Shown here piece by piece: positions 8,808-30,268 of a DNA stretch of 64,000 nucleotides. Positions within the stretch are counted from its first letter, which is position 1; the number at the start of each line of letters is the position of its first letter. Under the pieces are notes generated by a model. It worked only from the letters and a program-made list of their open reading frames with translations, did not search any database and had not been told where the DNA came from. This stretch comes from an uncultured Sphingopyxis sp. Lineage in GTDB: Bacteria > Pseudomonadota > Alphaproteobacteria > Sphingomonadales > Sphingomonadaceae. Made by a program: the position numbers and the translations under genes. The stretch is from NCBI RefSeq assembly GCF_900078365.1, contig NZ_LT598653.1, positions 1,837,290-1,901,289 of the forward strand. Direction: 5' to 3'.

Positions 8808-8822
8808 TGGAGGAGAGTGAGG
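8808..8822. repeat. att direct repeat: displaced 3' end of tRNA-Ser
   Basis: TGGAGGAGAGTGAGG identical to 30179-30193 (tRNA acceptor stem plus CCA); followed by an AT-rich stretch. Confidence 0.85.
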
Positions 8823-9315
8823 ATCCCGTTTGGACTATCTAACTATTTGTTATATTATACTAATTCTCTCACCAAAAAACTCTTGCCACACATCCTATTT
8901 CACGCATTTTCCTCTGTTGCGGAGAATTCTCAACTGCGGGCAGAGTGCATGCCTGTCTCACGACGACCGAATGACTGCTTTTTGTGTAACGCACCCGAGA
9001 GTTGCCGGTCTCTTTCCGTGAAGAGTTTCAGACGCCGGTAGGCGTCAGAAAGTCTGCGATGCCCGAACCGCGGGTTGCATAGGCTGATCTATGGGGAAAG
9101 CGGTTTTGAGCGGGACGATGGGTAACCGAGAGCTGTCCAAAAGCGGACGGATCTGAGAGCAGACCGTCTGGATGTAGGTTGCGAAAGCGGACGTCGAAAA
9201 GCGGACGGACCGATTTTACTGTTCCGGCGTCTGCTTTTGAGCCGGGCCAGCGCAAGCGGGTCCGCTTCCAGACGCGGGTCTGGCCTGGATGGTGTTGGCG
9301 ATAGGCCGTGCCGGA

Positions 9316-11696: not shown

Positions 11697-13925
11697 CTAC
11701 GCCGGCGGACCCACGAGCATTGCCATGATTTCGTCGCCATGCTCTCCCAAGGTTGGTGCCGGGCGGGATATAGGCGGGCGGGGGCCATCGATCCGGATGA
11801 CCGGCGCGGAGGTCCAGTGGCTACCGACATAGCGGCGCTCGATCCGGGTCCAGGCGCCTGTTTGGCCGAGATGCCTCTCAACCGGCAGATCTTCCGCCCG
11901 GTTGATCGGTGCTGCCGGAACTCCCGAGGCTTGGAGTGCGTCGGCCGCCTCCGCTGCCGTCATCGATTTCACAGACGCATGGAGGGCGGCCTCGATCGCA
12001 TCGCCGTGCAGATTCCGGTCCGCGATGCTGGTCCAGGCCGTCGCCCATTCCGGTTTGCCCAGCCACCGGGCGAGGGCGGTCCATTGAGCACTGTCCCGAA
12101 CGACGGTCGCCACATAACCGTCGCTCGCAGCGACGACGCATCGCGGCGCATGGAGGGCCGAGCGACTGCCGAGGCGCTGCGGGGCGCCCTCTGTTTGGGT
12201 GCGAATGATGGCGTCGGCGCCGAGCTGGAACAGGCATTCGACCTGTCCGAGGTCAAACCAGGTGCCGCCAAGCTCGGCCCTTCCGTGGAGGCCGGCAAGC
12301 GCGGCGATGGCACCATAGATGCCCGCGACCGGATCTCCGAGCGCAGTGTGCTGCAGCACGGGCGGCCAATGGGCTTCGCCGTTGACATGGGGCATGCCGG
12401 AGGCGTGCTCGACGGTGGAGCCATAGGCGCGGAAGAAGCTCCAGGGACCGGAGGCCCCGAACGCGCCCATCGATACCATGACAAGACCGGAGCGAAGATC
12501 GAGCAGATGGCCGGGGTCAAGCCCGAGCTTTTTCATCACCCCGGGTGCATAATTTTCGATCACGATGTCCGACCGGCGCACCAGCGTCTCGGCAAGCGTG
12601 CGGCCGCGTTTGTCGGTAAGGTCGAGGCAGATGCCCCTCTTGTTACGGTTCATGACGAGAAATGCGGGCATCATTTCATATTTTGGCGGGTCGGATGCCC
12701 CCGGTGGTTCCCAGCCGCGCCACCAGTCATAATGGGTGTCCGACTCCACCTTGATGATGTCGGCGCCGAGATCGGCAAGCAGCCGCGTACACATCGGCCC
12801 CGCCCAGCCCATCGAGAAGTCGGCAACGCACACACCATCGAGCGGCGCAGCGGGAGGGCTTTCCGGTGGCTGTTCGGCTAGGGACTGCCCGTCGGTAAAA
12901 ATGCGGAACGGTAGCAGCGGTGCGATAACGCCTTCGGCGTCGGGCAGGGGAGCGAAGCTTCCGCGCTCGCGCCAATGCGGCGTCGCCAGGAGCTCTCGGT
13001 GGTCCGGCACTGGAGCGAGCGGGACGCGGCGGCGCTGGCCCTCCATCAGCCAGTGATCGGTGGTTTCACGGGGCAGGATTGCGGCGAGCGCGGCATCAAG
13101 GGCTTCGGCGTTTTCGACGCGCGCGAGAGATGTCGCGAAGCGGGGATCGTTCGCCCAGTCGGGATGTCCAACCATATCGGCGAGTGCTGCCCATTGGGCG
13201 GGCGTGAGCGCGGTAACTCCGATCCAGCCGTCGCGCGTGGGATAGACGGTGGTAGGGTGGTTCGTCGCGAAGCGATTGATACCGGTCCGGCCGGGCGAAG
13301 CGGCACCCGCTTCGGCAAGGGGCGGCGAGGGTTCGGTGAAGCACATGGCGGCTTCGAAAATGTTGACGTCGACGCGCCTTGTCTCGCCGCCTCGCTTGCG
13401 CGACCAGAGCCCGGCGAGAGCCCCCACGACGAGGGTCGCGCCGGCGGTGATTTGCGGAGCGAAGCCCTGCGGTAGCATCGGCGGTCCATCGGAGGGGCCG
13501 AAGGAGGCGGCGATGCCGATCAATGCTTGGACCAAGGCGTCGTCGCCCTGCCAATCGCGATAGGGCCCGTCGTGGCCGAACCAGGTGATGCCGAGGCGAA
13601 GCGCGTCGAAGCTATGCTCAGCCAGGAGCCTGTCGACCGTCTCGACGGCCGTCGGCGACTGGCCAACAAGAACCACGCGATGCGAGGGCCGGAACTCCGC
13701 CAGCCGTCCGAGCCCCTCCTCGAACGTCCCGATGAACGACTTGCCTTGGTCAAGCCAGAGGTCCACGGCATCAGCTTGGCGGGGTGCTGCGCTGCCGATG
13801 CGCCATATCTGTGCGCCAAGGACGGACAAGGCCCGGGCGGAGTAACGGGCGGCGACGTCGTCCGACATTTCGAGAACCGCGATTCCGGCAAGCGGCCCGG
13901 CTTCGGCGCGGGTGTACAATTTCAT
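11697..13925 (-). CDS. Family III (CaiB/BaiF) CoA-transferase, two fused domains
   Basis: Two CaiB-like repeats: PLAGIAVLEMS... and PLDGVCVADFSMGWAGP...NRNKRGICLDL...LGDPVAG. Confidence 0.9.
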   Translation of the reverse strand: MKLYTRAEAGPLAGIAVLEMSDDVAARYSARALSVLGAQIWRIGSAAPRQADAVDLWLDQGKSFIGTFEEGLGRLAEFRPSHRVVLVGQSPTAVETVDRLLAEHSFDALRLGITWFGHDGPYRDWQGDDALVQALIGIAASFGPSDGPPMLPQGFAPQITAGATLVVGALAGLWSRKRGGETRRVDVNIFEAAMCFTEPSPPLAEAGAASPGRTGINRFATNHPTTVYPTRDGWIGVTALTPAQWAALADMVGHPDWANDPRFATSLARVENAEALDAALAAILPRETTDHWLMEGQRRRVPLAPVPDHRELLATPHWRERGSFAPLPDAEGVIAPLLPFRIFTDGQSLAEQPPESPPAAPLDGVCVADFSMGWAGPMCTRLLADLGADIIKVESDTHYDWWRGWEPPGASDPPKYEMMPAFLVMNRNKRGICLDLTDKRGRTLAETLVRRSDIVIENYAPGVMKKLGLDPGHLLDLRSGLVMVSMGAFGASGPWSFFRAYGSTVEHASGMPHVNGEAHWPPVLQHTALGDPVAGIYGAIAALAGLHGRAELGGTWFDLGQVECLFQLGADAIIRTQTEGAPQRLGSRSALHAPRCVVAASDGYVATVVRDSAQWTALARWLGKPEWATAWTSIADRNLHGDAIEAALHASVKSMTAAEAADALQASGVPAAPINRAEDLPVERHLGQTGAWTRIERRYVGSHWTSAPVIRIDGPRPPISRPAPTLGEHGDEIMAMLVGPPA

Positions 13926-13983
13926 CGATTGGCCTCTCCATCACCATGTCTCCTCCGCGTCCGAGGGCATGGATTGTATGCGA

Positions 13984-13999
13984 TGATAACGCGTTACCA
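13984..13999. promoter_or_regulatory. Palindromic operator copy 1 (TGATAACGCGTTACCA)
   Basis: 1 mismatch to the perfect palindrome TGGTAACGCGTTACCA; about 60 bp upstream of the CoA-transferase start. Confidence 0.75.
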
Positions 14000-14184
14000 A
14001 TGAGAGGCAAGGTTCATGTGCATTCGCGGGTGCGATGCGCCGAGTGGTTCGTCGAGAATCGAGCAGAGATGGCGACGTCAAAGAAAACTATTCCTATATA
14101 ACAGTATCTTGAATTCTATTTAATGCTTTGAGACGTGCGCTGTCGAAAGCCTGTTGACACTGGCTCCGGTTCGACGATAACCAT

Positions 14185-14200
14185 TGGTATCGCGTTACCA
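14185..14200. promoter_or_regulatory. Palindromic operator copy 2 (TGGTATCGCGTTACCA)
   Basis: 1 mismatch; 25 bp downstream of a TTGACA hexamer (14154-14159) and upstream of the TBDR operon. Confidence 0.75.
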
Positions 14201-14308
14201 AGGTGCGATTTGCGGACTTGCGAGGCCGCTGGGTTCCCTGGGGCGGGTAATAATATAATCAGCAGCGACCTGCCATCGGGGAGGGCTGTGACATGAAGAG
14301 GAGAGGGC

Positions 14309-16750
14309 ATGTTCAAGAGGCTCTTGTTGTCGTCCGCGGTACTGCCGCTGACGTTGTTTCACGTCGCCCCTGCCGCGGCCCAGGAAGCCGCCCCGCCCGA
14401 AAGCGCCGACGAAGGGGTAAGCCATCAGGGCTTCACCGATATCATCGTCACGGCGCGCCGCGTGGAGGAAAATCTGCAGCGTGTCCCGACCTCGGTCACC
14501 GCGGTAAGCGGAGATATGTTGCGCACGGAAAGCGTGATTGCTGTCAAGGACCTGCCGAAGCTTGCGCCGTCGCTCAGCGTCGTTTCCTATTTCAACGACA
14601 TGAACGCCCGCTTCTCGGTGCGCGGCCTGTCGGCAGGGGTCACGACCTATTTTGCCGAGGCTCCCTGCTGCGGCGGCATCGCCAGCGCACCCTTTCTCGA
14701 TATCGCCTCAGTTCAGGTGCTGAACGGTCCGCAAGGCACATTGTTCGGACGGTCGAGCGCGGCTGGCGCTGTCCTGATCACCCCGCAAAAGCCTGAATTC
14801 AATGAATGGGGCGGCTTGGTCGACATGACCGTGGGCACTTACGGCCGGGCTCAGTTCACAGGTGTGGTGAACATTCCGGTGATCGACGATCGTCTTGCCA
14901 TTCGGCTTGCCGCAAACGCCAATCGCGTGGGCGGTTACACCAAGCAGTTCGGGACGAGCAAACGTCTCGATGATGTCAACAACCAGCAGTACCGCCTTGG
15001 CGTGGCGTTCAAGTCGGGGGGACTGGAGAACACGCTTTTCGCTTCCTATGAAAATATCGATCAGTCTGCCACCGGTTCGATCCTGGCCGGTTACAAACCG
15101 ACCCATCCCAATCTGACTCCCGCGTTTCTCGCCGTGCTCGAGGCGGAAACGGCGCGTTTGGAGCAGGGCGGAAAGAAGGCTGCACGCATCACCGCTCCGA
15201 CCTACGACGGGCAGGCGCAGCTGACGCAGATGAAGCATGCCAGCGTCGTTAACAATACCCAGATCGAGGCGATCGATACTGGTTCGACGCGGATCAGCCT
15301 CAAGAACATCTTTTCGTTCGACTCTTTCACATCGAACAGTGCCGGCTCCTATGATGGTGTCGGCGGCATTCTGCAGGAAGGCGGCTTCGCCTCCGCGAAC
15401 TACAGCAACTTCGGTTCGAACAACCAGGTGGGAACGATGCTGAGGGCCAAGCTCGGCCCCGCGCTCCATACCTACACCAACGAGCTTCAACTGCACGCCG
15501 AACTGTGGGACGGTCTGCTGAAAGCCAATGTGGGCGGCTTCTATCAGCATCAGCGGGCGCCCCGGAACATGGAAGGCACCTCGAACGTCTACAAGCTCTA
15601 CAGCAATCCAAACGGCTATGTGAATGCCGTGGGCTTCATCAAACGATCGGTGGCGAAGGAAAAGGCAGTCTTCGGTCAGGCCACGCTCGATCTGTCGCAT
15701 GCCGGCATCGAGGGGCTCAGCCTCACCGGCGGATATCGTTACAGCTGGTCCGATTCCGAACTGACGACGATCGCCCCGGTCCGCAACCCGGTCACCGGCA
15801 ACTTCGAGCCTGGTACGCTGGAGACCAACTCGGCGACGAAGAGCAAGGGCTATAACTATACGCTGTCGATCCAGCAGCAGTTCACGCCCGACATCATGGC
15901 CTATGCCTCGGCGACGCGGGCCTATGTGCCCGGCGGTGTGAATGCGATCAGTCCGCCTCCCGGCTCCAATCTGCCAGGCTACAAGCCCGTTTATGATGCC
16001 GCCACGGTGAACACCCAGGAAATCGGTCTCAAGACCCAATTCTATCTTGGCGACGTGGCGGTCCGGTTGAATACGGCGGCCTATAACACCGATTACAAGA
16101 ATATCGCCCAGACATTGCTCGGCCTCGTCGATGGTGTATCCTATCGTTACCTCGCCAATATCGCCGCAATCCAGCTACGCGGCGTCGAAGTGGCAGGCAC
16201 GGTGGCATTCGATCCGAGCTTCAGCGTCAACTTCGGCTATTCCTACAACCATGCGAAATACAAGACGTGGACGGGCGTCGATCCGTACAATGCCGCACGT
16301 CCCGGCGATGCGGTTTGTGTGCCCGAATCTCCCGCCGGCGTCTGTTTCCTCGATCTCAGCAACAACCCGTTACCCTACATGCCGAAGCATTCGGGCAATG
16401 TGACATTCCAGTACACGGCGCCGCTCGGTTCCGACGTTGGCGAACTCGGGCTGTCGGCGTCGCTCTTCACGCAGAGCCGGGTTTACTATGTCGCGGCCGC
16501 GGCGCGGGATCTCCAGCTCTATCCGGAAGGCCTCGATGCCATTTCGCAGGCCCCCTACAGCACGGTCAATCTGCGGGCGGAATTGCGCGACGTGGCCGGA
16601 TCGGGCTGGAACGGGGCGGTCTTCGTGAACAATGTGACCGACAAGCTCTATGCCACCGGCAAGGTCGCACAACTTCACACGCTCGGTTTCGCGGCTGCAA
16701 ATTATGCTCCGCCGCGCATGTTCGGGCTTCAGGTCTGGAAGAAATTCTAG
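14309..16750 (+). CDS. TonB-dependent receptor
   Basis: Signal peptide, TonB-box-like DIIVTARRVEE, plug motif VLNGPQGTLFGRSSAAGAV, C-terminal NVTDKLY...FGLQVWKKF. Confidence 0.92.
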   Translation: MFKRLLLSSAVLPLTLFHVAPAAAQEAAPPESADEGVSHQGFTDIIVTARRVEENLQRVPTSVTAVSGDMLRTESVIAVKDLPKLAPSLSVVSYFNDMNARFSVRGLSAGVTTYFAEAPCCGGIASAPFLDIASVQVLNGPQGTLFGRSSAAGAVLITPQKPEFNEWGGLVDMTVGTYGRAQFTGVVNIPVIDDRLAIRLAANANRVGGYTKQFGTSKRLDDVNNQQYRLGVAFKSGGLENTLFASYENIDQSATGSILAGYKPTHPNLTPAFLAVLEAETARLEQGGKKAARITAPTYDGQAQLTQMKHASVVNNTQIEAIDTGSTRISLKNIFSFDSFTSNSAGSYDGVGGILQEGGFASANYSNFGSNNQVGTMLRAKLGPALHTYTNELQLHAELWDGLLKANVGGFYQHQRAPRNMEGTSNVYKLYSNPNGYVNAVGFIKRSVAKEKAVFGQATLDLSHAGIEGLSLTGGYRYSWSDSELTTIAPVRNPVTGNFEPGTLETNSATKSKGYNYTLSIQQQFTPDIMAYASATRAYVPGGVNAISPPPGSNLPGYKPVYDAATVNTQEIGLKTQFYLGDVAVRLNTAAYNTDYKNIAQTLLGLVDGVSYRYLANIAAIQLRGVEVAGTVAFDPSFSVNFGYSYNHAKYKTWTGVDPYNAARPGDAVCVPESPAGVCFLDLSNNPLPYMPKHSGNVTFQYTAPLGSDVGELGLSASLFTQSRVYYVAAAARDLQLYPEGLDAISQAPYSTVNLRAELRDVAGSGWNGAVFVNNVTDKLYATGKVAQLHTLGFAAANYAPPRMFGLQVWKKF

Positions 16751-16776
16751 GACGCTAACGCCAGGGAGGCCCAAAC

Positions 16777-17625
16777 ATGGCAACGCAAACGATCCGCCAC
16801 GGAGTGGACAATCTCTCGCCGGAATTGAGCGCGCGGTTCGAAGAACTGGATTTATGGGACAATGCGCGCGACCTGGTGGAGGACGGCTACACGATCATCC
16901 AGGATCCGGCCGCCCACGCGATTACCGACGAGTTGCGTGAAGCGATCCTGCGGCTGTCGCAGACGTCCGAAGGTGAAAACAGGGGTCGGCGTGCGGGGCT
17001 TCTGCTCGGCCGCGATCCGGTATTTGCAAAGGCGGTCACCGTTCCCCGCCTGCTGGCGCTGGCGGAATTTCTTGTCGGGCGCGGCATGCTGCTGAGCCAA
17101 CTGCTGGGGACGATCCGGGGGCCGGGCGGCAGGAACCTCGGGCTACACGCGGACAATAGCTGGTTCCCCGAGCCGTTTCCGGCTTGGGAAATCATGTGCA
17201 CCGCATGCTGGGTCACCGACGAGTTTACCGAAGAGCATGGGGCGACGATGATCATCCCCGGGACGCATAAGCAAAAGCGCCACCCCCCGCGGGACGTCCG
17301 CGAGTCTCTGGAAGGCGCGCGGGCGATTGTCGCACCGAAAGGATCCATCTGCCTGTGGGACGGATCGGTCTGGCACGGAAATTACGCCCGCAAAACGCCG
17401 GGTGAACGGGTTGTTCTTCATACCACTTACACGCGGCTCGGGATGCAGCCGATCGACGATTACAGCCATCTCGGCGACACATGGCTGGAGCAGAATGCCT
17501 CCGAATTTCGCGGCCTTTTAGGCCGCGACCTTTTCTTTCATTCGACTACCGAAACCAGCGGGCAGACGGATCAGGACAGATTGCGCCATACCTACAGGAT
17601 GGTTCACGGTCCTCAGGGATATTGA
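16777..17625 (+). CDS. PhyH-family Fe(II)/2-oxoglutarate dioxygenase, paralogue 1
   Basis: HxD (LHADNSW), DEFTEEHGATMIIPGTHK, distal His (WHGN), GERVVL. Confidence 0.88.
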   Translation: MATQTIRHGVDNLSPELSARFEELDLWDNARDLVEDGYTIIQDPAAHAITDELREAILRLSQTSEGENRGRRAGLLLGRDPVFAKAVTVPRLLALAEFLVGRGMLLSQLLGTIRGPGGRNLGLHADNSWFPEPFPAWEIMCTACWVTDEFTEEHGATMIIPGTHKQKRHPPRDVRESLEGARAIVAPKGSICLWDGSVWHGNYARKTPGERVVLHTTYTRLGMQPIDDYSHLGDTWLEQNASEFRGLLGRDLFFHSTTETSGQTDQDRLRHTYRMVHGPQGY

Positions 17626-17650
17626 CCGGCAACGCCGCAGAGGAGACGAA

Positions 17651-19225
17651 ATGAGCGATATCTGGACGGGAAGCGCAGTTCCATCGGCGGACGCTTGCGT
17701 GACGGGACCGCTGCTGGAACGCTATGCGCGCGAAACGCCCGACAAGGTCTTCGCTCTCTTCGAGGACGGAAGCAGTTGGACCTACGAGCAAACGCTGGCG
17801 ATCGTTCAGAAAATGGCCGGCGGTCTACGCGCGCTTGGCGTCGCGCAGGGCGACTATGTCAATGTGTGGCTACCGAATGGCCGGGAAGCGGTTGCGGTCT
17901 GGCTGGCGATCAACTGGCTCGGGGCGATCTATGTTCCGATCAATCTGGCGTACCGCGGAAATATTCTCGAACATGTGGTAGCGAACGGACAGGCGCGGCT
18001 GATGATCGCCCAGTCGGAACTTGCCGAACGGCTGCGGACAATCGACCGTGCATGTCTGACCGACATCGTCACGCTCGGCGATGCGCCCGAAGCGATGGGC
18101 GATATACGCTTCCACAAGTGGGAAAGCCTCGACGGGCCGAAGGTCGCGGATCCGGCAAAGGTCATGCCATGGGATGTGCAGATGGTAATCTACACGTCCG
18201 GCACGACCGGTCCGTCGAAGGGCGTGCTTGTCACCTATTGTCACAGCTATACGTCGATCAACGCGGCGTTCGGCTATGTCGGTCCTGACGATCGCTATCT
18301 CGTCGCCTTGCCTCTTTTCCATATCTCGGGGACCGGGGGCGTGCTTCTCGCGCTCTACAGCGGCGCGTCGTTCGCGCTTATCACGCAATTTTCGACCTCG
18401 AATTTCTGGCGCGTCGTGCGCGAGACGGGGACCACCTGTCTGGTCCTGTTGGGCGTGATGGCGGCGTTTCTTGCCAAGGAAGCGCCGCGCGACGATGATC
18501 GCGATCACCCGTTGCGATCTGTCATGATGGTCCCTTACACCGAGGACGCCGCTGTCTTCGAAAGCCGCTTCGGCTGTGAGGTGCGGACCTGCTTCAATAT
18601 GACCGAGATATCGACCCCGCTGGTGGCCGAACCGGGCGGAAATCTTCCGGTATCCAGCTGCGGCACGGTACGCGCCGGGGTCGAGGCGCGGCTCGTCGAC
18701 GCCAATGACGTCGATGTCGCCGATGGCGAGATCGGCGAACTCATCCTGCGATGCGACCGTCCGTGGTCGATGACGATTGGCTATCTGAACAACCCTGAAG
18801 CCACCGCGACGGCGTGGCGCAACGGCTGGTTCCATACGGGCGATGCTTTCCGGCGAGACGAAGGAGGCAATTATTTCTTCGTCGACCGGATCAAGGATGC
18901 GATCCGCCGCCGCGGCGAGAATATCTCGTCCTTTGAGGTCGAGAGCGACGTCTGCTCACACACGTCGATCCGTGAGGCAGCCGCGATCGGCGTTCCAAGT
19001 CCGTTTGGCGAGGAGGAAGTGATGGTCGTCGTAGCCCCCGCGCCGGGCGAGAAGATCGATCCGAAAAAGCTCATCGAATTTCTGGAGCCGCGCATGGCCG
19101 GCTTCATGTTGCCGCGCTACATTCGCACGATGGACGATCTGCCCAAGACGCCGACGCAGAAGGTGCAAAAGCATCTGCTACGCGCGGAAGGAATCACGAC
19201 AGACACGTTCGACCGGCTCGGCTGA
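17651..19225 (+). CDS. AMP-forming acyl-CoA ligase (CaiC-like)
   Basis: YTSGTTGPSKG P-loop, FNMTE, GWFHTGD, RRRGENISSFEVE, LPKTPTQK. Confidence 0.9.
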   Translation: MSDIWTGSAVPSADACVTGPLLERYARETPDKVFALFEDGSSWTYEQTLAIVQKMAGGLRALGVAQGDYVNVWLPNGREAVAVWLAINWLGAIYVPINLAYRGNILEHVVANGQARLMIAQSELAERLRTIDRACLTDIVTLGDAPEAMGDIRFHKWESLDGPKVADPAKVMPWDVQMVIYTSGTTGPSKGVLVTYCHSYTSINAAFGYVGPDDRYLVALPLFHISGTGGVLLALYSGASFALITQFSTSNFWRVVRETGTTCLVLLGVMAAFLAKEAPRDDDRDHPLRSVMMVPYTEDAAVFESRFGCEVRTCFNMTEISTPLVAEPGGNLPVSSCGTVRAGVEARLVDANDVDVADGEIGELILRCDRPWSMTIGYLNNPEATATAWRNGWFHTGDAFRRDEGGNYFFVDRIKDAIRRRGENISSFEVESDVCSHTSIREAAAIGVPSPFGEEEVMVVVAPAPGEKIDPKKLIEFLEPRMAGFMLPRYIRTMDDLPKTPTQKVQKHLLRAEGITTDTFDRLG

Positions 19226-19269
19226 TCGTCCGGCGGCGGAGGAGGGGCGACGGCGCTACTCTCTCTGCA

Positions 19270-22200
19270 TCACCAGCTATCGATGAACGGACGCTTTTTC
19301 TTGCCCGTCCGTACAGGCGCGGGAATGCTTTCGAGACCCGCGACGATGTGAGCCCGCGTTTCGGCGGGATCGATCACTTCGTCGAAGTCGAACCCCATCG
19401 CGGTGCTGATCGCTTTGCCATTTTCATAGGATTCGGCGACGCGTTGTTCGTACCAGCGCTGCCGCTCGTCGAGATCGGCGATTGCCTCCATTTCCTTGCG
19501 ATAGCCCAGCTTGACTGCGCCCTCCAGCCCCATGCCGCCGAATTCGCCGGTGGGCCAGGACAAGGTAAAGAAGGGGGCCTGACTATGGCCGCCGACCATC
19601 GCCATCACGCCAAGGCCATAGCCTTTGCGCAGGACGACCGAGAAAAGCGGAACCGTCAGGTTGGGGCCGGTCACGAACATGCGGCAGCAATGCCGGATCA
19701 GCCCCGACTTTTCGGCTTCCGGACCCACCATATTGCCCGGCGTGTCCGCCAGAACGACGATCGGGATGTCGAACGCGTCGCACAATTGCATGAAGCGCGA
19801 ACATTTGTCCGCAGCATCGGCATCGACCGCGCCGCCGAGATAGGCCGAATTGTTCGCGATGATTCCGATCGGACGACCCTCGATCCGGGCCAGTGCGGTA
19901 ATCGCGGCGCGGCCGAATGTCTCGCGAAGCTCCAGCACCGAACCGGTGTCGCATAATGTCTCGATGATCCGGCAGATATCATAGGCACGCAGACGATTTT
20001 CAGGCACCATGCTGCGCAGAAGCCGCTGGTCGGCGGCATCCCACGAGGGCAGTCGTCCCTGAAAATAGGAGAGATATTTCTGTGCGATGCGCACGGCGTC
20101 GGCTTCGTCCTCCGCCAGGATGTCGATGACGCCGCCCGCCGCCTGTACCTCGGCCGGCCCGACTTCCTCCGGCGTGTAGACGCCGAGGCCGCCGCCTTCG
20201 ATCAGAGCCGGGCCGCCGACGCCCATCGTCGTGTCCTTCGTCGCTATCACGACGTCGCAGCATCCGAGCAGTACGGCGGCGCCCGCGAAGCAGCGACCAT
20301 TTGCGATCGCGATCTGGGGCACGAGCGCGCTCAGGCGGCCCTGCAACGCAAAGGCGCGCGTATTGAATATGCCGCCGCCCGCGGGCCGGTCGGTATCACC
20401 GGGGCGGCCGCCGCCGCTTTCGGCAAACAGGATGACCGGCAGGCGCCAACGCTCGGCCAGTTCCAGCATCCGGTCCGTTTTTTCGTGGTTCTTCAGGCCC
20501 TGTGTGCCGGCATAAACGGTATAATCATAGGACATGACGACGCAGCGCGACGCATCGGCGCCAAATATGTCGCCGTTCACGCGCCCGATCCCGGTGACCA
20601 TGCCGTCGGCCGGAGTCGTGCGAATGAGATGGTCGACGGGATGACGCAACCGCTGGCCCGCGATGACGAGCGAGCCATATTCGATGAAGCTGCCTTCATC
20701 GACGATATCGTCGACATTCTCCCGCGCCGTGCGATATCCGCGGGCACGCCGGCGGGCGACGGCATCGGGACGCGCGGTATCGAGCGTGAGCGCACGGCGC
20801 GCGTGCAATTCGGCGAGATCGGGGCGAATATGGTCGGGATCGATGTCGGCGGCGGATTCGATCGCCGAAAGACCAACATCGGCTTCCTCGAAGAACAGGA
20901 TGGGACTGCCCTCCGATACCACGGCGCCGATCTCGTTCGGCAACAGCCGCACATAGCCCGCCGCCGGCGCTGTGATGACATGTTCGAGTTTCATTGCCTC
21001 CATGACCGCGACAGGCTGTCCTGCCGCGACCGCCTCGTTCGCCGCTGCCGGCAATGCTATGAGCGAGCCGGTCATCGGTGCCGCGATCGCGACCGTACCG
21101 GCGGGCACGTCCACTATATGGTCCGGTGATGGCGCGTCGCTTGCGGCGTCGGACGAAGGGTCGGGCTTCAACTGGTCTGCATGATCGAGAAGTGCTCCGA
21201 GATGGCGCTCGATGAAAAACGTATCGAACGCGCCGGCCGCAATTTCGGGATGCTGCAACAATGCGCGGAGAAACGAGAGGTTGGTTTCGATGCCCTCGAT
21301 CGCAAACTCGCCGAGGGTGCGGTCAGCCAGACGAACGGCGTTCGCGAGACCGCCGGTCGGCGCGGTCGTGATCACCTTGGCAAGCAGGCTGTCGAAGCGG
21401 GGATTGGGTTGATATCCCCGCTCTCCGCAGTCGTCGACGCGCACACCCGGACCCGCCGGTATTTCGTAGCGGCCTATGCGACCGCCCGACGGTCGGGGCA
21501 TCCCGTCGGCAGCGATTGCTTCCGCGTTCACGCGCGCCTGAATGGCTACGCCGCGCGGGGCGGGAATTCGGTCCTGTCGCAGTTCGAGGTTGCGGAGCGA
21601 CATTCCATTTGCCAGCTCCAATTGGATGTCGACAAGGTCGAGCCCGGTAACCGCCTCCGTCACCGTATGTTCGACCTGTAGCCGGGCATTCGCTTCGATG
21701 AAGTAAAAGCTGCCGTTATCGAGGTCGACGAGAAACTCTACCGTCCCGACCCCACGATAATTCACGGCCCTGCCGATAGCGACGGCGGCGTCGAACAGTT
21801 TTTCACGCAGCGCCGTATCCAGCCCGGGTGCGGGAGCGATTTCGACGATCTTTTGCCGCTGGCGTTGCAGGCTGCATTCGCGGTCCCACAGATGGACGAC
21901 ATCGCCCGTGCCGTCGCCGATGATCTGTACCTCGACATGGCGCGCCCGGCCGACGAGCTTTTCGCAATAGACAGCGTCGGATCCAAACCCGGCGAGCGCC
22001 TCTGAGCTGCAGCGCTGGTGCGTGTCGGCGACCGCCGCGCGATCGGTGACCGGGCGCATTCCGCGACCGCCGCCGCCCGCGACCGCCTTGATCATCATCG
22101 CCCCGTGACGGTCGAAAAAGGCGAGGGCTTCTTCGACACCGACCGGGCCATCGCTGCCGGGCGGAACGGGAATGTCTGCCGCCAAGGCAATCGCGCGCGC

Positions 22201-22548
22201 GTGGGCTTTGTCGCCGAGCGCTGCAAGTGTCACCGCTGCGGGGCCGACAAAGACCAGACCGGCCTCCTCGCACCGCTGAGCGAACTCTGCGGACTCGCTC
22301 AGAAATCCGTATCCGGGGTGGACCGCGTCGCAGCCTGCGTCGCGTGCGACTTCGACGATCGCATCGATGTCAAGATAGGCGGCGGGGCCACTTCCGGGAA
22401 GCGCGAGCGCTTCGTCGGTCCGCCGGCTGTGCAATGCGTTGCGGTCGTCGGCCGAATAGATGCCGATGGACCTGATACCGCGGCCTGCGGCGGCGCGAGC
22501 GATGCGGACGGCAATCTCGCCGCGATTGGCTATCAACAGCTTTTTCAT
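19270..22548 (-). CDS. Single-chain biotin-dependent acyl-CoA carboxylase (BC-BCCP-CT)
   Basis: LLIANRGEIA, HPGYGFLSE, RLQVEH (biotin carboxylase); EAMKL biotin site; C-terminal carboxyltransferase with GGRPGD and DTPG. Confidence 0.9.
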   Translation of the reverse strand: MKKLLIANRGEIAVRIARAAAGRGIRSIGIYSADDRNALHSRRTDEALALPGSGPAAYLDIDAIVEVARDAGCDAVHPGYGFLSESAEFAQRCEEAGLVFVGPAAVTLAALGDKAHARAIALAADIPVPPGSDGPVGVEEALAFFDRHGAMMIKAVAGGGGRGMRPVTDRAAVADTHQRCSSEALAGFGSDAVYCEKLVGRARHVEVQIIGDGTGDVVHLWDRECSLQRQRQKIVEIAPAPGLDTALREKLFDAAVAIGRAVNYRGVGTVEFLVDLDNGSFYFIEANARLQVEHTVTEAVTGLDLVDIQLELANGMSLRNLELRQDRIPAPRGVAIQARVNAEAIAADGMPRPSGGRIGRYEIPAGPGVRVDDCGERGYQPNPRFDSLLAKVITTAPTGGLANAVRLADRTLGEFAIEGIETNLSFLRALLQHPEIAAGAFDTFFIERHLGALLDHADQLKPDPSSDAASDAPSPDHIVDVPAGTVAIAAPMTGSLIALPAAANEAVAAGQPVAVMEAMKLEHVITAPAAGYVRLLPNEIGAVVSEGSPILFFEEADVGLSAIESAADIDPDHIRPDLAELHARRALTLDTARPDAVARRRARGYRTARENVDDIVDEGSFIEYGSLVIAGQRLRHPVDHLIRTTPADGMVTGIGRVNGDIFGADASRCVVMSYDYTVYAGTQGLKNHEKTDRMLELAERWRLPVILFAESGGGRPGDTDRPAGGGIFNTRAFALQGRLSALVPQIAIANGRCFAGAAVLLGCCDVVIATKDTTMGVGGPALIEGGGLGVYTPEEVGPAEVQAAGGVIDILAEDEADAVRIAQKYLSYFQGRLPSWDAADQRLLRSMVPENRLRAYDICRIIETLCDTGSVLELRETFGRAAITALARIEGRPIGIIANNSAYLGGAVDADAADKCSRFMQLCDAFDIPIVVLADTPGNMVGPEAEKSGLIRHCCRMFVTGPNLTVPLFSVVLRKGYGLGVMAMVGGHSQAPFFTLSWPTGEFGGMGLEGAVKLGYRKEMEAIADLDERQRWYEQRVAESYENGKAISTAMGFDFDEVIDPAETRAHIVAGLESIPAPVRTGKKKRPFIDSW

Positions 22549-22551
22549 GAT

Positions 22552-22986
22552 CTAGACTGCTGTTTCTTTCGCGATGCTGTCGTGTAGCTCGCGTAAAACC
22601 GCCATGATTGGCTCCGGTGCCTTGTGGCTTCCGACGCGGATCGTCATTCGGCCTGCGGCAATCATCGCGCGCCGGTGATCATTGGCCGCTTTCAGCATCT
22701 GCTCCGTCGCGCCGTCATAGATCAACATTGCACCGGGCAAAGCGGCCGTCTGCTCCGCAACCAGCGCGAAATCCGCGTCGGGGTCGGGGGCGTCGCCGAA
22801 ACGAACTTTTCCGCCTTCGATCCTCGCTGCCCAGAAACTGGTCCCGCCATCGGGCGGCACGGAAGTGAAGGTTTCGGACAGAGAAAAATGATGGCCGGCC
22901 AGACGGTCGCTGTTCTCGGTCACCAATCGCGCGAGCAGTTCCTTAATGCGTTCGATCCACTGCGGGCCGGCAAAAATCATCGTCAT
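22552..22986 (-). CDS. Small hypothetical protein, SCP2-like lipid-binding fold suspected
   Basis: Last 144 aa of the 745-aa track ORF; its ATG overlaps the MFS stop (ATGA). N-terminus FAGPQWIE and IEGGKVRFGDAPDPDADFAL resemble bacterial SCP2-like proteins. Confidence 0.6.
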   Translation of the reverse strand: MTMIFAGPQWIERIKELLARLVTENSDRLAGHHFSLSETFTSVPPDGGTSFWAARIEGGKVRFGDAPDPDADFALVAEQTAALPGAMLIYDGATEQMLKAANDHRRAMIAAGRMTIRVGSHKAPEPIMAVLRELHDSIAKETAV

Positions 22987-24503
22987 TCTTTCGATTCCAG
23001 TTCGTGCAGGATACGTGCATGCTTGTCGCGATCGAGGTCGTAGAACCACATGATCGACATCGCGATCACGGTGAAAACGAGCATCATGGGACCATACAGC
23101 AGCGCCAGATGGACGGCGGTCTCGTGCGGTACTTCGTCGACTGCGACGCCTTGCGGGAAGCGGATCAGGTCGAGTGCTACCCCGGCGAGCGCGCCGCCGA
23201 TCCCCAGCGACGCCTTTCGCGTGAACGCGCTGACGCCGAAGAGAAAACCTTCGCTCCGGCTTTTGAAACGCAACTCGTAGGCGTCGGCGATGTCGGCAAG
23301 CATTGCGCCTGCAATCACCATGGCCGGGCCGCCTGCCAGCGACGCAAAAAATGCCGCGGCAGCGAGCAGCGCGGTCAGCATCTCTGCGCTTTCGGGAGGC
23401 GTCAGGACGCCCGCTTCGCGAAGGGCGATCGGGGCGACATTCAACGCGACCGACAATATCACCGACGCAATATAGGCTGTGCGTTTGTCTAACCGGTCGG
23501 CCAACGCGCGAGCAAAGACGGATCCGAGCATGAAGCCGAATGCCGCGCCGAGGAACACCCATTGGATACCCCATGTGGGCAGTTTCCAGTAGAAGGTGTT
23601 GACATGCACCGCCAGGGCTGCCTGCACGCCGCCAAGGACATAGGAAATCAGGATCGCGACGAAAAAGATCGCAAAGGTCCGCAGCCGGAACGCGTTGAAG
23701 AGATTGCTGAGCATCGGTTCGTGGAACTGGCCGCGGCCCTGCGATTGCATCCGGGAATAATATTGCAGCGCGCGCTTTTGGGTCGTCGCGGCGGACGCCA
23801 GGATCGCAACCAGCGCGATCACGCCGCATGTCAGCGCGAGCGGCGGATAGGCGCCTTCGTTCAACTGGCCCTGCGGATATTCGGGGGTTGTGTGAAAGAA
23901 TATGCTGAAAGCAATCGCAATCACGAGCAGGCGCCCTGCAAAAGCAAAGATGTTTCTGTAGCCGGAAACCGAAATCCGCTCTTTGAAGTCGGTCGAGAGT
24001 TCGGCGCCGAGAGCCATATGGGGGATGAAATAGAAAGACTGCATCAGCCGGCAGAAGGCCGTGAAGCCGAGGAGCCAGAAAAATATTCCCCATTGGCCCA
24101 AGCCTGCGGGCGGATCGAAGAGCATGTAAAGGCCGAAGGCGAGCGGGAGGGGAGCGAGATAGAGATAGGGATGCCGACGGCCAAAGCGCGTCGCCGTCCG
24201 GTCGGACAATTGGCCGATTAACGGGTCCGAGATGCCGTCGAACAGCAATGCGATCAGCAGCGCGAGTCCGACCAGCGAGCCTTGCAGTCCGATGACCTGA
24301 ACATAATAGAAAAAGAGAAATGTCTCGAGCGTCGCGGTTTTTACGCCCTCGGCCATTTCGCCGAGGCCATATCCCAATTTGGTTCCGATCGAGAGATGGT
24401 CGGTGCTTCTGCCCTCGCGAGCGGCTTCGCCGATAGGAGGAGAGGGCGTACAGGCTACGACCGGGGGAGCTCCCGGAACTGCTTCCCTCATCCTTCTCTC
24501 CAT
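22983..24503 (-). CDS. MFS transporter, GPH (MelB-like) family
   Basis: KLGYGLG, DGISDPLIGQLSDRTATRFGRRHPY, ALGAELSTDFKER; about 12 TM helices. Start could be 24491. Confidence 0.88.
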   Translation of the reverse strand: MERRMREAVPGAPPVVACTPSPPIGEAAREGRSTDHLSIGTKLGYGLGEMAEGVKTATLETFLFFYYVQVIGLQGSLVGLALLIALLFDGISDPLIGQLSDRTATRFGRRHPYLYLAPLPLAFGLYMLFDPPAGLGQWGIFFWLLGFTAFCRLMQSFYFIPHMALGAELSTDFKERISVSGYRNIFAFAGRLLVIAIAFSIFFHTTPEYPQGQLNEGAYPPLALTCGVIALVAILASAATTQKRALQYYSRMQSQGRGQFHEPMLSNLFNAFRLRTFAIFFVAILISYVLGGVQAALAVHVNTFYWKLPTWGIQWVFLGAAFGFMLGSVFARALADRLDKRTAYIASVILSVALNVAPIALREAGVLTPPESAEMLTALLAAAAFFASLAGGPAMVIAGAMLADIADAYELRFKSRSEGFLFGVSAFTRKASLGIGGALAGVALDLIRFPQGVAVDEVPHETAVHLALLYGPMMLVFTVIAMSIMWFYDLDRDKHARILHELESKE

Positions 24504-24538
24504 TTCTCACAGCGCATCGCTGCGCTCGCGAATCTGTT

Positions 24539-24554
24539 TGGTAATGCGTTACCA
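24539..24554. promoter_or_regulatory. Palindromic operator copy 3 (TGGTAATGCGTTACCA)
   Basis: 1 mismatch; in the divergent MFS/TetR intergenic region. Confidence 0.75.
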
Positions 24555-24631
24555 GCGACATGCCATCGGGGGGCGAGCTAGTCAATGTCATGGGTTGCAG
24601 GCGGCGAGGCACGCGATATAGCGGCGATGTT

Positions 24632-25324
24632 ATGGCGGATGTCGAAGACGTGACGGGCCCGGGCGGCCATATGTCGGACAAGCGAGCGGCGACCTTGCTG
24701 CAGGCCGCGCAGGCTATTGTCCGCGAGACAGGGAATTTCGATCTGCCGATGCGGACATTGGCTGCGCGCGCACAGGTCAGCCTGCGCACGCCCTATGAGG
24801 TTTTCGGATCGAAGAACGGGATCATCCGCGCGCTGCTGAAATCGGAACAGGAAGAGTTCCGGGAGATCGTCAGAAATTACCGGTCCATCGATCGGCTCGA
24901 GATGTTCTTCGACCGAACATTGCTCGGCATGGAGTTCTATGCTCGCGAACAGCCCTTTTATCGCGCGCTTTTCCGAGCGACGCAGGCATTTTCGGGCGGC
25001 GACGAGACCGAACCTGCGCGTGAGATGCTGCCCATCTATACCAATATGGTCCGCCGCGCGATCGAAGAGGGCTTCCTGCGCAACGATCTGGACATCACGA
25101 ATATCGCCGAAATCCTCACAGACCTGTTTGCGGCGAACCTGCGCAACTGGGCGTCCAGCGATTTCGATATCTGGCTTGCCGGGCAGAAAATATGTTTCGG
25201 ATTTTCGCTTGCGCTTGCCGGCGTCGCCACGCCGCAATGGGTCGACCGGCTGCACCTGAACGCCCGGGCTTACGACAAAGCGATTCAGGATTATCCCGGC
25301 GGAGCGGCGCTTCCGGTCAGGTAA
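24632..25324 (+). CDS. TetR/AcrR-family transcriptional regulator
   Basis: N-terminal HTH LLQAAQAIVRETGNFDLPMRTLAARAQVSLRTPYEVFGSKNGII; start at 24632 or 24671. Confidence 0.88.
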   Translation: MADVEDVTGPGGHMSDKRAATLLQAAQAIVRETGNFDLPMRTLAARAQVSLRTPYEVFGSKNGIIRALLKSEQEEFREIVRNYRSIDRLEMFFDRTLLGMEFYAREQPFYRALFRATQAFSGGDETEPAREMLPIYTNMVRRAIEEGFLRNDLDITNIAEILTDLFAANLRNWASSDFDIWLAGQKICFGFSLALAGVATPQWVDRLHLNARAYDKAIQDYPGGAALPVR

Positions 25325-26138
25325 TCCCGCGCTTCTGCCAGAATTCCGATCCGTGAACCTGGTCATATGTCTTGCGCAGCAACTCGCGGTCGTTTTGTTT
25401 GAACGTCGGGCTGCGTCCGAGGAAGATTTCCCGACCCAGCAAGCGGGGTAGTTCGGGGTCCTTGCCGGCGAACCAATCCTCGCCCAGATGATCGTAATTC
25501 TCGATCGGCTGCATGCCGATCCGCGTATATGTCATGTGCAAAACGACGCGCTCGCCGGGGATCTGGCGCGGATAGTTGCCGTGCCATACCGATCCGTCCC
25601 ACAGGCAGATCGCGCCCTTGGATGCGACGATCGGTCGCGCACCTTCCGGTTCCGCGCGTTCTTCGGGCGACGGATGACGCTTCAGCTTGTGCGAACCCGG
25701 AACGACAAGCGTCGCGCCCGATTCCTCAGTGAATTCGTCGGTGACCAGGCAGGCCGTGCACATGATCTCCCATTCGGGGAAGGGGGCGGGAAACCAGCTA
25801 TTGTCCGCGTGGAGACCGAGAGAACCTTTTCCCGCGCGCCGCCGCGAGCCGGACAATTGCGAGAAGAGTGCGCCTTTGCCCAGCAGATACTCGACCAGTG
25901 TCAAAAGCTTTGGTGTCGATATGGCGTCGGCAAAGATCGGATCCTCACCCAATATCGTGAAACGCGTCGGGGCTTTTTCCTCATCGCCTGCCGCCACGGT
26001 GCGAATGATGGCCTCGCGGACCTCATCGACAATCCGGTCAGTGCGCGCGTCGTGGAATATGGTGTATCCCCATTGGTCCAGCTCGGCGACATTCTCTTCA
26101 AGCCCTTGTTCGACAATGCGGTCGTGCAGCTTCTGCAT
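25317..26138 (-). CDS. PhyH-family Fe(II)/2-oxoglutarate dioxygenase, paralogue 2
   Basis: LHADNSWFP, DEFTEESGATLVVPGSHK, WHGN; AGGAG RBS supports the MQKLHD start; convergent overlap with tetR. Confidence 0.88.
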   Translation of the reverse strand: MQKLHDRIVEQGLEENVAELDQWGYTIFHDARTDRIVDEVREAIIRTVAAGDEEKAPTRFTILGEDPIFADAISTPKLLTLVEYLLGKGALFSQLSGSRRRAGKGSLGLHADNSWFPAPFPEWEIMCTACLVTDEFTEESGATLVVPGSHKLKRHPSPEERAEPEGARPIVASKGAICLWDGSVWHGNYPRQIPGERVVLHMTYTRIGMQPIENYDHLGEDWFAGKDPELPRLLGREIFLGRSPTFKQNDRELLRKTYDQVHGSEFWQKRGIT

Positions 26139-26164
26139 GGCATTTGGTCTCCTCTCCTGATGCA

Positions 26165-26180
26165 AGGTAACGTGTTACCG
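26165..26180. promoter_or_regulatory. Palindromic operator copy 4 (AGGTAACGTGTTACCG)
   Basis: 14-bp core GGTAACGTGTTACC with 1 mismatch; 27 bp upstream of the phyH paralogue 2 start. Confidence 0.7.
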
Positions 26181-26465
26181 AAGAGGTGCAAGATATATTC
26201 TTTAATAGCGCAAAGCGCGTCGCTTACTTCCTGTCGATCCATCCATGCCGACCTCCAAACAGCCAGCAGCTTGAATCACAATCTATCCCCAATGGGAATC
26301 CTGAATGTAAACACTTCCCAGGGCCGCCGGCGCGTCCGTCAATCGACGTTGAGACGATTGAACCAATGCGATGAAACACTTGGCCTAACGGCATCGGCCC
26401 AACCCGTGCCATTTCCGCCCCGTTTGGGCCGCGCGTCCACCTGACGCGCGGAGAGGGGAAAACTC

Positions 26466-29400
26466 ATGACGATCCTGTTGTTCGATTTCGCCGAGCCGAC
26501 CGCCGACGCGCAGGCGTCCGCCCGGTGTGCGCGCGCCGGGCTGCTGCTTAACTGCGCCGCGGCGACGCTGGCTATCGGCTTAGCCGGCGCGCCGATAGCG
26601 CCCGCGGCCGCCATGCAGACCGGCACCCCGGGCGCCCAGCTTTGCGAAGGCGGCTATTTCGTCTTCGACGGCGTCTGCCCCACGACGCCGACGCCGACGC
26701 CGCCGCTTTCGCCGGCGGACTTCACCAGCGAGGCCGCCGACTGCCGGAACCTGTTCTTGACGCCGCTGGCACCGGCGCCAACCCCGACCCCGACCCCGAC
26801 CCCCATTCCGCCGCCATCGGGCGGGGGCGGCCCGGGCCATGTGCTCGAATCGGTCGGCCCTCCGATGCCGTTCGACGCGGCCATCTCGTCGGTGGACGAT
26901 TCGTTGGCTTGCGGGACCGGCGCGAGCACTGGCGTCGCGCTGCGCGCCACCGCGATCGGAACCTCCAGCACCGTGACCGGCGACGACGGCACGGCGGTGG
27001 GCGCGAACAGTAGCGCCGGCCAGCTCGCCACCGCCATCGGCGCGCACGCCGCGGCTGCCGATTATGCGACGGCGATCGGCAGCGAGGCCAGCGCGGACAG
27101 CGGCGGCACCGCGGTCGGTAGGCTGGCGCAAACCGGCGTCGGCGGCACCGCGATCGGCAACCAGAGCAAAGCGACGGGCGCCACCAGCACCGCGATCGGC
27201 ACCGTCGCCGTGGCGAGCGCAGACAATAGCGTGGCGATCGGCGCCGGTTCCATTGCGGACCAGGCGGATACCGTGTCGGTAGGGAAAGCGGACGCCAGGC
27301 GGCGGATCACCAACGTCGCCGACGGTACGAGCACCACCGATGCGGTCAATCTCGGCCAACTCGACGCGGCGATCGCCGCGGTGCCGATCGCCAGCAACAA
27401 TACCGGCGGCCTCGCGGCGCCGGTCGCCACCGGCCCCAACAGCCTGGCCGTTGGCAATGGCGCCGAGGCAAGCGGCGACCTGAGCGCCGCGATAGGCAAT
27501 GGCAGCTACGCCTCGGTCGCCAACAGCACTGCGATCGGTACCAGCGCGGTCGCCTCGGGCCAAAGCAGCACAGCGACCGGGATGGCCAGCAACGCCTGGG
27601 GCGACTACAGCACCGCAACCGGCGCCAAGAGCTACGCCACGGGTGCGTATAGCGCGGCAATCGGAGAGAACAGCGTTGCTTCAGGCTACGGCAGCACGGC
27701 AACCGGCGCCAGTGCGGCTGCCGGAGGCACGCTCGCCAACGGCTTCACCAACCAAGGCACTACTGCGGTCGGTGCTGGCGCTCAGGCAGGCATGGTCGCC
27801 GCCGGACAGACCAACGCCACCGCCATCGGCTATGGCGCACATGCCAATGCCGCCAGCGCCTCCGCCTTCGGCCAGGGCGCGCGCGCCTCCGCCACGAACG
27901 CGGTGGCGCTGGGGCGGGGATCGGTCGCTGATCAGGCGGATACCGTGTCGGTGGGGAAAGCGGACGCCAGGCGGCGGATCGTCAATCTTGCCGACGGCGT
28001 CGTCGGGGCAGGATCGAGCGATGCGGTGACCGGAGGTCAGCTGTTCGCCGCCAATAATCGGATCGCGCTGGCGTTCGGCGGAGGCGCCGGGGTGGAAGCA
28101 AGCGGATTGCTGACGCCGCCGAGCTACGTCGTCCAGGGAGGAAACCACGACAACGTCGGCGGCGCGCTCGGCGCGCTCGATAGCCAGGTGACGATCAACA
28201 CCGGCGGCATCGCCACGCTCCAGAATCAGATCGCGGGAGGCTCGATCGGTCTCGTCCAGCAGGATCCGGCGAGCCGCGCCGTCAGCGTCGCCGCGGCGAC
28301 CGACGGCGCTACGGTCGATTTCGGCGGAACCGCTGGCGCGCGGGTGCTGACCGGCGTGGCGGCGGGCAATGTCACTGCGGGCTCGACCGACGCGGTCACC
28401 GGATCGCAGCTCTATGCGACCGATCAGAATGCCGCGGCGGCGCGGACGAGCGCGGACGCCGCCCATCGCACGGCAAACACCGCGCTGGCCAATGCCGCGA
28501 GGGCGCTAAGGACTGCCGAGACGGCGATCGCTAACGCCGTCGACGCTCGCGCCGCTGCCGACCATGCCCAACGGAGCGCCAACGATGCGCAGGCCGCGGC
28601 GAACAAGGCGCTCGCGTCGGGCGTGGCGGCCAGCGAGACCGCCAACAAGGCGCTGGCGAATGCCACCACCGCGCAGCGCGCCGCCGACGTCGCGCGGCAG
28701 AAAGCCGATACCGCGCAGCACACCGCCGATCTGGCCGTCGGCAATGCCGCGACCGCGCACAAGATCGCCGACACGGCGCTCGCCAACGCCGCGACCGCGC
28801 AGCAGACCGCCGATCTCGCGCTCGCCAACGGGAAGTATTTTCGCGCCAATATGACCGGCGACGGGCCGCAAGCGACCGGAACCAACTCGATGGCGATGGG
28901 CGCGGGCAGCACGGCGAGCGGCGACCGGTCGGTGGCGATGGGTTATGGCGCCGTCGCCAAGGACGGCGCGGCGGTCTCGATCGGCGCGGGCAATGTCGCC
29001 TCGGGCGACGGCGCGGTGGCGATCGGCGATCCCAACACCGCAACCGGCCTCGGGGCGGTGGCGATCGGCAACACCAACACCGCGACCGGCGACGGCGCAG
29101 TGGCGATCGGCAACCACAATGTCGCCGCCGGCAACGGCGCACTGGCGTTCGGCGATGGTGCAAATGCGCAAGCAGACGGCAGCGTCGCGATCGGCCGCGG
29201 CGCTATCGCCACCCGCGCCGATGAGGTCGCGCTCGGCTCGGCCGCTTCGACCTACACCCTCGCCGGCATCGCCTCCGACACCAGCCGCGCCGCGCAATCA
29301 GGCGCGACCGGCTTCGTCACCGCCGACGGCGCCGGCCGTCTCGCGGTCACCGATTTTGGTCCCGCCGACATCGCCGCGCTCGACCGGACGATGCGGATCG

Positions 29401-30178: not shown

Positions 30179-30268
30179 TGGAGGAGAGTGAGGGATTCGA
30201 ACCCTCGGTACCGTTGCCGGCACTTCGCATTTCGAGTGCGACGCTTTCGACCACTCAGCCAACTCTCC
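30179..30268 (-). tRNA. tRNA-Ser(CGA)
   Basis: Folds as acceptor GGAGAGT/ACTCTCC, anticodon arm TCGCA-CTCGAAA-TGCGA, long variable arm, T arm GAGGG-TTCGAAT-CCCTC, encoded CCA; 90 nt. Confidence 0.97.

Follow-up and report, generated by a model that had tools for sequence, protein, structure and literature searches.

A repeated palindrome at the promoters of a mobile sphingomonad catabolic cassette, and the TetR-family protein that probably binds it

Two TetR-family repressors are among the closest described counterparts of the system presented here. KstR (Rv3574) of Mycobacterium binds as a dimer to TAGAAC-N2-GTTCTA (core TnnAACnnGTTnnA), overlapping the −10 regions at many promoters (PMC1995591). 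EdcR of Caenibius tardaugens is a TetR repressor encoded inside an oestrogen-degradation cluster that includes a TonB-dependent receptor gene, and one palindrome is found at each of four promoters, where it overlaps the −10 and is conserved in related clusters (PMC8700777). Estradiol is the effector of EdcR and its function was shown by deletion and reporters (PMC8700777), whereas the present system is known from sequence alone. It lies in a 64-kb stretch of the genome of an uncultured Sphingopyxis sp. (contig NZ_LT598653.1, positions 1,837,290 to 1,901,289; hereafter the window, whose own numbering is used throughout). Four copies of a 16-bp palindrome, the putative operators O1 to O4, are found there in a catabolic cassette of nine genes and five transcription units, which encodes its own TetR-family protein (230 aa, 24632–25324, plus strand). 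The resemblance to EdcR extends to the sphingomonad catabolic cluster, the TetR belonging to it, the repeated palindrome at four promoters and the TonB receptor, but the EdcR operator is a different, longer palindrome (TnnCnnTACnAnTnGTAnnGnnA). We consider it very probable that the cassette TetR binds the four sites and represses the four promoters.

An earlier reading of the same DNA, the original prediction, had listed four palindromes with a single mismatch each in a 14-bp core, and no further copy within the window. A search of the 64 kb with the pattern TGGTAACGCGTTACCA, allowing up to three mismatches, returned exactly these four matches, starting at 13984, 14185, 24539 and 26165, and a scan of the 14-bp core found exactly one mismatch in each of them. 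Relative to the full 16-mer, the sites at 13984, 14185 and 24539 have one mismatch each and the site at 26165 has three. Chance expectation from dinucleotide-preserving shuffles (n = 100) was 0.06 sites, and none of the 100 shuffles reached four. Abundance of the motif throughout the genome had been raised beforehand as an objection; no extra copies were found. In the host genome, a single contig of 4.14 Mb with 66% G+C, these four are the only sites with at most one mismatch in the 14-bp core, and the only ones with at most two mismatches to TGGTAAC-NN-GTTACCA. All four are intergenic, each located 5' of genes. Because of the window count compared with the shuffles, and of the lack of other copies in the genome, the palindrome is real, non-random and confined to the cassette cluster.

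The sites appear to lie over or just past the −35/−10 elements predicted for four promoters, and they do so in two arrangements. O1 (TGATAACGCGTTACCA, 13984–13999) is located in the promoter of the coenzyme A (CoA)-transferase gene, 59 bp upstream of its ATG, and overlaps a promoter-like TTGCCT-16-TATCAT on the minus strand (14010→13983) that was called by the consensus scan. O4 (AGGTAACGTGTTACCG, 26165–26180) is located in the promoter of the second PhyH gene, PhyH2, whose ATG lies 26 bp further downstream; a minus-strand TTGCAC (26191→26186) is followed by 5 nt and then by the operator. At these two promoters the operator begins 5 nt after the −35, over the spacer and the −10. O2 (TGGTATCGCGTTACCA, 14185–14200) lies 108 bp upstream of the ATG of the TonB-dependent receptor (TBDR) gene, and is preceded by TTGACA (14154–14159), 17 nt, ATAACC (14177–14182), which is the predicted −10 of the TBDR-PhyH1-ligase operon, and 2 nt. 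O3 (TGGTAATGCGTTACCA, 24539–24554) is found in the gap from which the MFS and tetR genes diverge; the MFS ATG is 35 bp away from it and that of tetR 77 bp. On the minus strand it is preceded by TTGACT (24585→24580), 17 nt, CATGTC (24562→24557) and 2 nt, and it overlaps the predicted promoter and transcription start site of the MFS gene. At the TBDR and MFS promoters the operator thus begins 25 nt after a TTGAC-type −35, or 2 nt after the −10. The gap between the −35-like hexamer and the operator falls into two clusters, of 5–6 nt and 23–28 nt. Distant loci show the same two phasings, and the operator beside tetR always overlaps the divergent gene's TTGAC box, at a distance of 5–6 or 23–30 nt. 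We infer that both phasings are repressor positions.

Binding of the TetR as an activator, or as a dual regulator at some of the sites, is quite improbable with this geometry. The four structural-gene promoters carry their sites on the spacer and −10 or on the +1, in two sharp phasings that recur across genera, and such geometry is that of classical occlusion, as in KstR. On the other side, about 80 bp separate the centre of O3 from the predicted tetR start downstream of it, a distance compatible with activation or with no effect. A few TetR-family proteins activate, for example those of the LuxR/HapR type, and LuxR/HapR-type proteins were among the fold matches of the cassette TetR.

The notion that the palindrome serves every transcription unit of the cluster held for the promoters of the CoA-transferase, TBDR-PhyH1-ligase, MFS and PhyH2 units, but is less clear for tetR, whose candidate promoter is not overlapped by O3. 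This candidate, TTGCAG-16-TATAGC (24595–24622, plus strand), was read by eye from two conserved blocks, GGGTTGCAGG and GCGATATAGC; it was not called by the consensus promoter scan. It is located about 40 bp downstream of O3 and would imply a near-leaderless tetR mRNA. In all loci examined, the site beside tetR overlaps the divergent promoter and not the one predicted for tetR. Since O3 lies some 40 bp upstream of the candidate tetR promoter, autoregulation of tetR by occlusion is not evident. In two of the orthologous loci, L027 and L029, an operator-preceded operon ends with tetR; in L029 the genes run in one direction and a single site is found upstream of the first gene.

A scan of orthologous clusters had been proposed together with the original prediction, and it located the motif 5' of genes of the same families in 19 loci. 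Species-representative genomes scanned by TetR alignment gave 14 loci with 42–93% identity, which lie in Sphingomonas, Phenylobacterium, Caulobacteraceae, an unclassified alphaproteobacterium and Steroidobacter, and look-ups in metagenomes added closer relatives. The resulting comparative set consists of 19 non-redundant loci (322 kb) with TetR orthologues of 42–94% identity. It contains 50 matches to TGGTAAC-NN-GTTACCA at up to three mismatches (155 per Mb), compared with 0 per Mb at up to two mismatches in the window's genome outside the cluster. Sites were mapped relative to tblastn matches of the nine window proteins. Those with at most two mismatches are intergenic and located 5' of CoA-transferase, TBDR, PhyH, MFS/SCP2-like, carboxylase or tetR genes, and this promoter-proximal placement is kept despite shuffled gene order and orientation between loci.

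Intergenic alignments of the close relatives show invariant 7-bp arms, two free central bases and diverged flanks. At O1, GATAACGCGTTACCA is invariant in the close relatives L048, L049 and L050 while the flanks have diverged. O2 is kept in L048 and L050, and is also present in L023 with the same 25-nt gap. The alignment of O3 in seven relatives has invariant arms around a varying centre (GC, AC, AT, TC, TT or CT). At O4, GGTAAC-NN-GTTACC is invariant in six relatives, and homology stops about 35–60 bp past the operator. A count matrix of 40 distinct sites, picked on the arms with centre and flanks unconstrained, carries no information beyond the 16 bp, and its centre carries 0.3 bit. Specificity appears to reside in the two 7-bp arms, which flank two free base pairs. 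Two of the loci deserve mention for their organisation. One Sphingomonas contig (L024) encodes two TetR paralogues, at 1077–1730 and 8621–9250, with 53% and 58% identity to the window protein and with motif sites near each. In L049, a relative with 90% identity, the gap between the CoA-transferase and TBDR genes (3241–3390) is much shorter and holds one operator, apparently common to both divergent units; a gene with a cyclic nucleotide monophosphate (cNMP)-binding domain adjoins the CoA-transferase gene there.

A non-regulatory origin of the repeats, as end remnants of a mobile element, recombination sites, targets of restriction or methylation, or RNA hairpins, can be given hardly any weight against this pattern. 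The mobile cassette does adjoin an IS91-type transposase and an integrase, and three of the sites contain an MluI-type ACGCGT. However, the sites lie within the cassette and invariably close to promoters, and the arms are conserved while the centre, including ACGCGT, is not. No RNA hairpin can form with a stem of 7 bp and a loop of 2 nt, and the absence of the sites from the rest of the genome is unlike repetitive extragenic palindromic (REP) elements or miniature inverted-repeat transposable elements (MITEs).

The motif follows the TetR orthologue from genome to genome. In a sample of 201 genomes from the window's family, more than one match at up to one mismatch was found in the genome of the window alone (three matches); 12 other genomes have a single match, no more than a reversed-pattern control. 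The 200 other genomes encode no TetR relative above 34% identity, and the loci of those used as negative controls lack the motif. In the genus of another locus, L030, four of the 121 genomes hold an orthologue and have 6, 2, 2 and 4 sites, whereas of the 117 genomes without it, 115 have none and two have one site. At least two sites are thus found in 4/4 holders and 0/117 non-holders (Fisher p = 1.2e-7). Whole-genome scans of four other holders placed 14 of 15 matches on the cluster-bearing contig. In the Phenylobacterium metagenome-assembled genome G201, two sites (L045, 5947 and 6126) are located about 12–14 kb from tetR, before an MFS_2-carboxylase operon, and its only match on another contig (L046, 4075) lies between a gene for a short-chain dehydrogenase/reductase (SDR) and a PhyH gene. 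Such unlinked sites fit a factor that acts in trans on a functionally coherent regulon.

Could the palindrome instead be read by a regulator encoded outside the cassette, either a global or a pathway regulator of the host, while the neighbouring TetR reads another sequence? Co-occurrence of the motif with the cassette as a whole would fit this, as would the position of O3 away from the predicted tetR promoter. Proteins of the LacI and GntR types, too, use even palindromes of such length. Nevertheless, we consider such a regulator very improbable. The cassette keeps its motif in differing genomic contexts and families; a host factor would need to be conserved across all of these families and yet have no other genomic site; and genomes without the cassette lack clusters of the site. 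No LacI, GntR or other regulator is found in or beside the island, and the cassette with about 10 kb on each side holds no regulator gene other than tetR. An operator of LacI or GntR type was rejected for this reason and for two others. The dyad centre is G|C with a free dinucleotide, whereas operators of the LacI type have CG there, and a TGGT-N(0-4)-ACCA pattern is at odds with the spacing.

The protein at 24632–25324, with its ATG at 24632, is a divergent but genuine member of the TetR family. Its orthologues at 44–60% identity carry PF00440, and a profile of 35 family sequences matches 79 TetR chains in the PDB, with a best E-value of 1e-11 and with UidR and KstR as the best matches. The AlphaFold2 model (predicted local distance difference test, pLDDT, 88.5; predicted template modelling score, pTM, 0.83) has ten helices, in agreement with the all-helical fold of 9–10 helices and two domains typical of the family, whose C-terminal domain serves ligand binding and dimerisation. 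The top 50 Foldseek matches in the PDB all belong to the TetR family, with a template modelling (TM) score of up to 0.77 for a KstR-DNA complex (5fmp). This TetR is the sole DNA-binding protein encoded in the cassette. A small open reading frame at 22552–22980 was considered as a hidden DNA-binding protein and rejected, as its fold is that of SCP2 and as several loci have the motif without it. Across the family alignment the helix-turn-helix (HTH) is nearly invariant, and all loci with canonical arms have the same recognition-helix segment, VSLRTPYE-FGSK. In the Steroidobacter locus (L034) the outer arms are altered, GAGTAAC..GTTACTT (GAGTAACGCGTTACTT), and the helix reads VSMTAPYA. This single covariation of helix and operator is no more than suggestive of a link between protein and site. 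The choice of the island TetR as repressor, made in the original prediction, is supported by the uniqueness and conservation of the palindrome, by its co-occurrence with the orthologue, by the lack of another DNA-binding protein in the cassette and by the overlap with predicted promoters.

KstR ranks with the best matches of this protein by sequence, by profile and by fold, and the two systems would share more than membership of the TetR family and repression of lipid catabolism. The AAC-N2-GTT core with its 2-bp spacing is identical in both operators. They differ in the outer arm, GGT here as compared with TAG; the outermost T/A of the KstR 14-mer corresponds to G/C in GGTAAC-NN-GTTACC. Identity between the two proteins is about 20%, and the cassette TetR reaches 29 bits against the KstR equivalog NF033703, whose cut-off is 280 bits. 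Further differences are the size of the regulon, with four to six sites on a mobile cassette here as opposed to dozens genome-wide in the case of KstR, and the position of the operator, which here is not on the regulator's own predicted promoter. By analogy, the cassette TetR appears to work like KstR, but it is not a KstR orthologue. Solved complexes of KstR contain CoA thioesters, as judged from the titles of the entries. KstR, KstR2, Thermus FadR and other TetRs responding to lipids or CoA esters are among the nearest solved relatives of the cassette TetR, and the ligands of the closest ones are CoA thioesters or small lipophilic molecules. With TetR itself and with acyl-CoA-sensing TetRs such as Thermus FadR and KstR2 it shares an N-terminal three-helix HTH followed by a helical ligand domain, a palindromic operator (here putative) for a single dimer and a divergent transporter gene beside the regulator gene. 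In the TetR/tetO paradigm, however, both divergent genes are under operator control.

Several points weigh against repression of the four promoters by the cassette TetR. Control of tetR itself is not explained by the position of O3. The promoter hexamers are guesses at the level of consensus, and the scanning tool called the CoA-transferase promoter only. A search for RNA runs of the organism turned up only metagenome DNA runs, and metatranscriptomes that contained 5% of the sampled words. Shared phylogeny makes many of the orthologous sites non-independent, and the covariation of helix and operator comes from a single locus. The co-occurrence links the motif to the whole cassette and not to the TetR alone. 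Finally, the single-sequence Pfam match to TetR_N scores 17.6 bits, below the gathering threshold of 24 bits, though it covers the whole 47-position model.

With these points taken into account, repression by the cassette TetR could proceed as follows. One TetR dimer would bind each 16-bp site through the 7-bp arms TGGTAAC and GTTACCA, with the 2-bp centre being non-specific. At the CoA-transferase and PhyH2 promoters the bound protein would cover the spacer and the −10 region, and at the TBDR and MFS promoters it would sit directly after the −10, over the transcription start. From these positions it would therefore exclude RNA polymerase from the four promoters, leaving the eight structural genes silent. 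An effector, either the substrate or more likely a CoA-thioester intermediate, would release the TetR, and uptake, CoA activation, hydroxylation and carboxylation would be switched on together. The tetR gene would be read from its own promoter, outside the cover of the operator. An acyl-CoA intermediate is a reasonable though tentative candidate for the effector, because of the KstR-like relatives of the protein and the CoA enzymes of the regulon.

Unit 1 of the cassette consists of the gene for a tandem-fused family III CoA-transferase of 742 aa (11697–13925, minus strand), in which Pfam CoA_transf_3 matches two stretches. On the plus strand, unit 2 begins with the TBDR gene (14309–16750; Pfam Plug and NCBIfam TonB-dependent families), which is followed after 26 nt by the gene for PhyH1 (16777–17625; Pfam PhyH), a 2-oxoglutarate/Fe(II) dioxygenase of the PhyH family, and by that for an AMP-forming acyl-CoA ligase (17651–19225; Pfam AMP-binding and AMP-binding_C). 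The ligase is intact (524 aa) in the window and in L037; in L035 and L036 (3022–4596) it is called in two pieces of 392 and 87 aa, from either a frameshift or an assembly error. Unit 3, on the minus strand, starts with the gene for an MFS_2 (GPH-type) transporter (22983–24503; Pfam MFS_2, TIGR00792) and ends with that for a single-chain biotin carboxylase-biotin carboxyl carrier protein (BCCP)-carboxyltransferase of 1092 aa (19270–22548; identified by Pfam). Between them lies the small open reading frame (22552–22980), encoding 142 aa. It accounts for the one discrepancy in the inventory: co-regulation of the cluster was supported, but eight genes had been claimed and there are nine, this one having been overlooked. 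The carboxylase gene begins 3 nt after its stop. No Pfam or NCBIfam match was found for the small protein; its AlphaFold2 model (pLDDT 94.4) has SCP2 and UbiJ-SCP2 as top Foldseek matches, and it is conserved in 11 loci. The predicted SCP2-like fold hints that the cassette handles a hydrophobic substrate. PhyH2, another PhyH-family dioxygenase (25317–26138, minus strand; Pfam PhyH), makes up unit 5. Its ATG at 26138 is preceded by the ribosome-binding site GGAGAGGAGA, and a PDB search returned remote solved relatives only. The convergent 3' ends of tetR and the PhyH2 gene overlap by 8 bp (25317–25324), as they do in close relatives, for example in L035 at 10686–10693. No cassette enzyme reaches an NCBIfam equivalog cut-off, and the CoA-transferase matches are all below it.

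The nine-gene block (11697–26215) is a horizontally acquired mobile cassette that brings its own regulation. G+C content at third codon positions is 0.71–0.76 in its nine genes, compared with 0.82–0.91 in the neighbouring ones. It is flanked on the left by an IS91-type transposase and a tyrosine recombinase, and on the right by a YadA-like adhesin, a tRNA-Ser and an amidohydrolase. Close relatives with 80–94% TetR identity (L035, L038, L040, L042 and L048–L050) have the same nine-gene block with unrelated genes to its left and right; in one of them, L042, PhyH2 directly adjoins a phage-type integrase. The adhesin of the window is a trimeric autotransporter of 1058 aa (26466–29642, plus strand), whose third-position G+C content of 0.84 is native-like. 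The tRNA-Ser(CGA) (30179–30268, minus strand), just right of the cassette, could mark the original region of integration.

A literature search for the motif string returned unrelated eukaryotic papers only, and no paper describing this gene set was found. The circuit is an undescribed member of a very familiar regulatory type. A local TetR repressor with a repeated palindrome is textbook regulation, and the value of the finding therefore lies in annotation and de-orphaning rather than in a new principle. It delimits a so far uncharacterised catabolic cassette of nine genes, which moves among Sphingomonas, Phenylobacterium and their relatives, and defines the co-regulation of its genes. A reporter under an operator-controlled promoter, together with tetR, would respond to the true inducer and could thereby offer a route to the substrate. 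Family III CoA-transferases have the AMACR fold, and the gene set is, speculatively, reminiscent of methyl-branched lipid catabolism. That the regulon is a self-contained, mobile and acyl-CoA-sensed module for the catabolism of methyl-branched (isoprenoid-type) lipids is possible but rather doubtful. If true, the cassette would correspond, in bacteria, to the peroxisomal tool-kit for alpha-oxidation (PhyH, AMACR-fold family III CoA-transferase, SCP2 and acyl-CoA ligase), supplemented by a single-chain acyl-CoA carboxylase and by dedicated uptake across the outer and inner membranes, and the TetR with its operator would provide a ready-made biosensor for the substrate.

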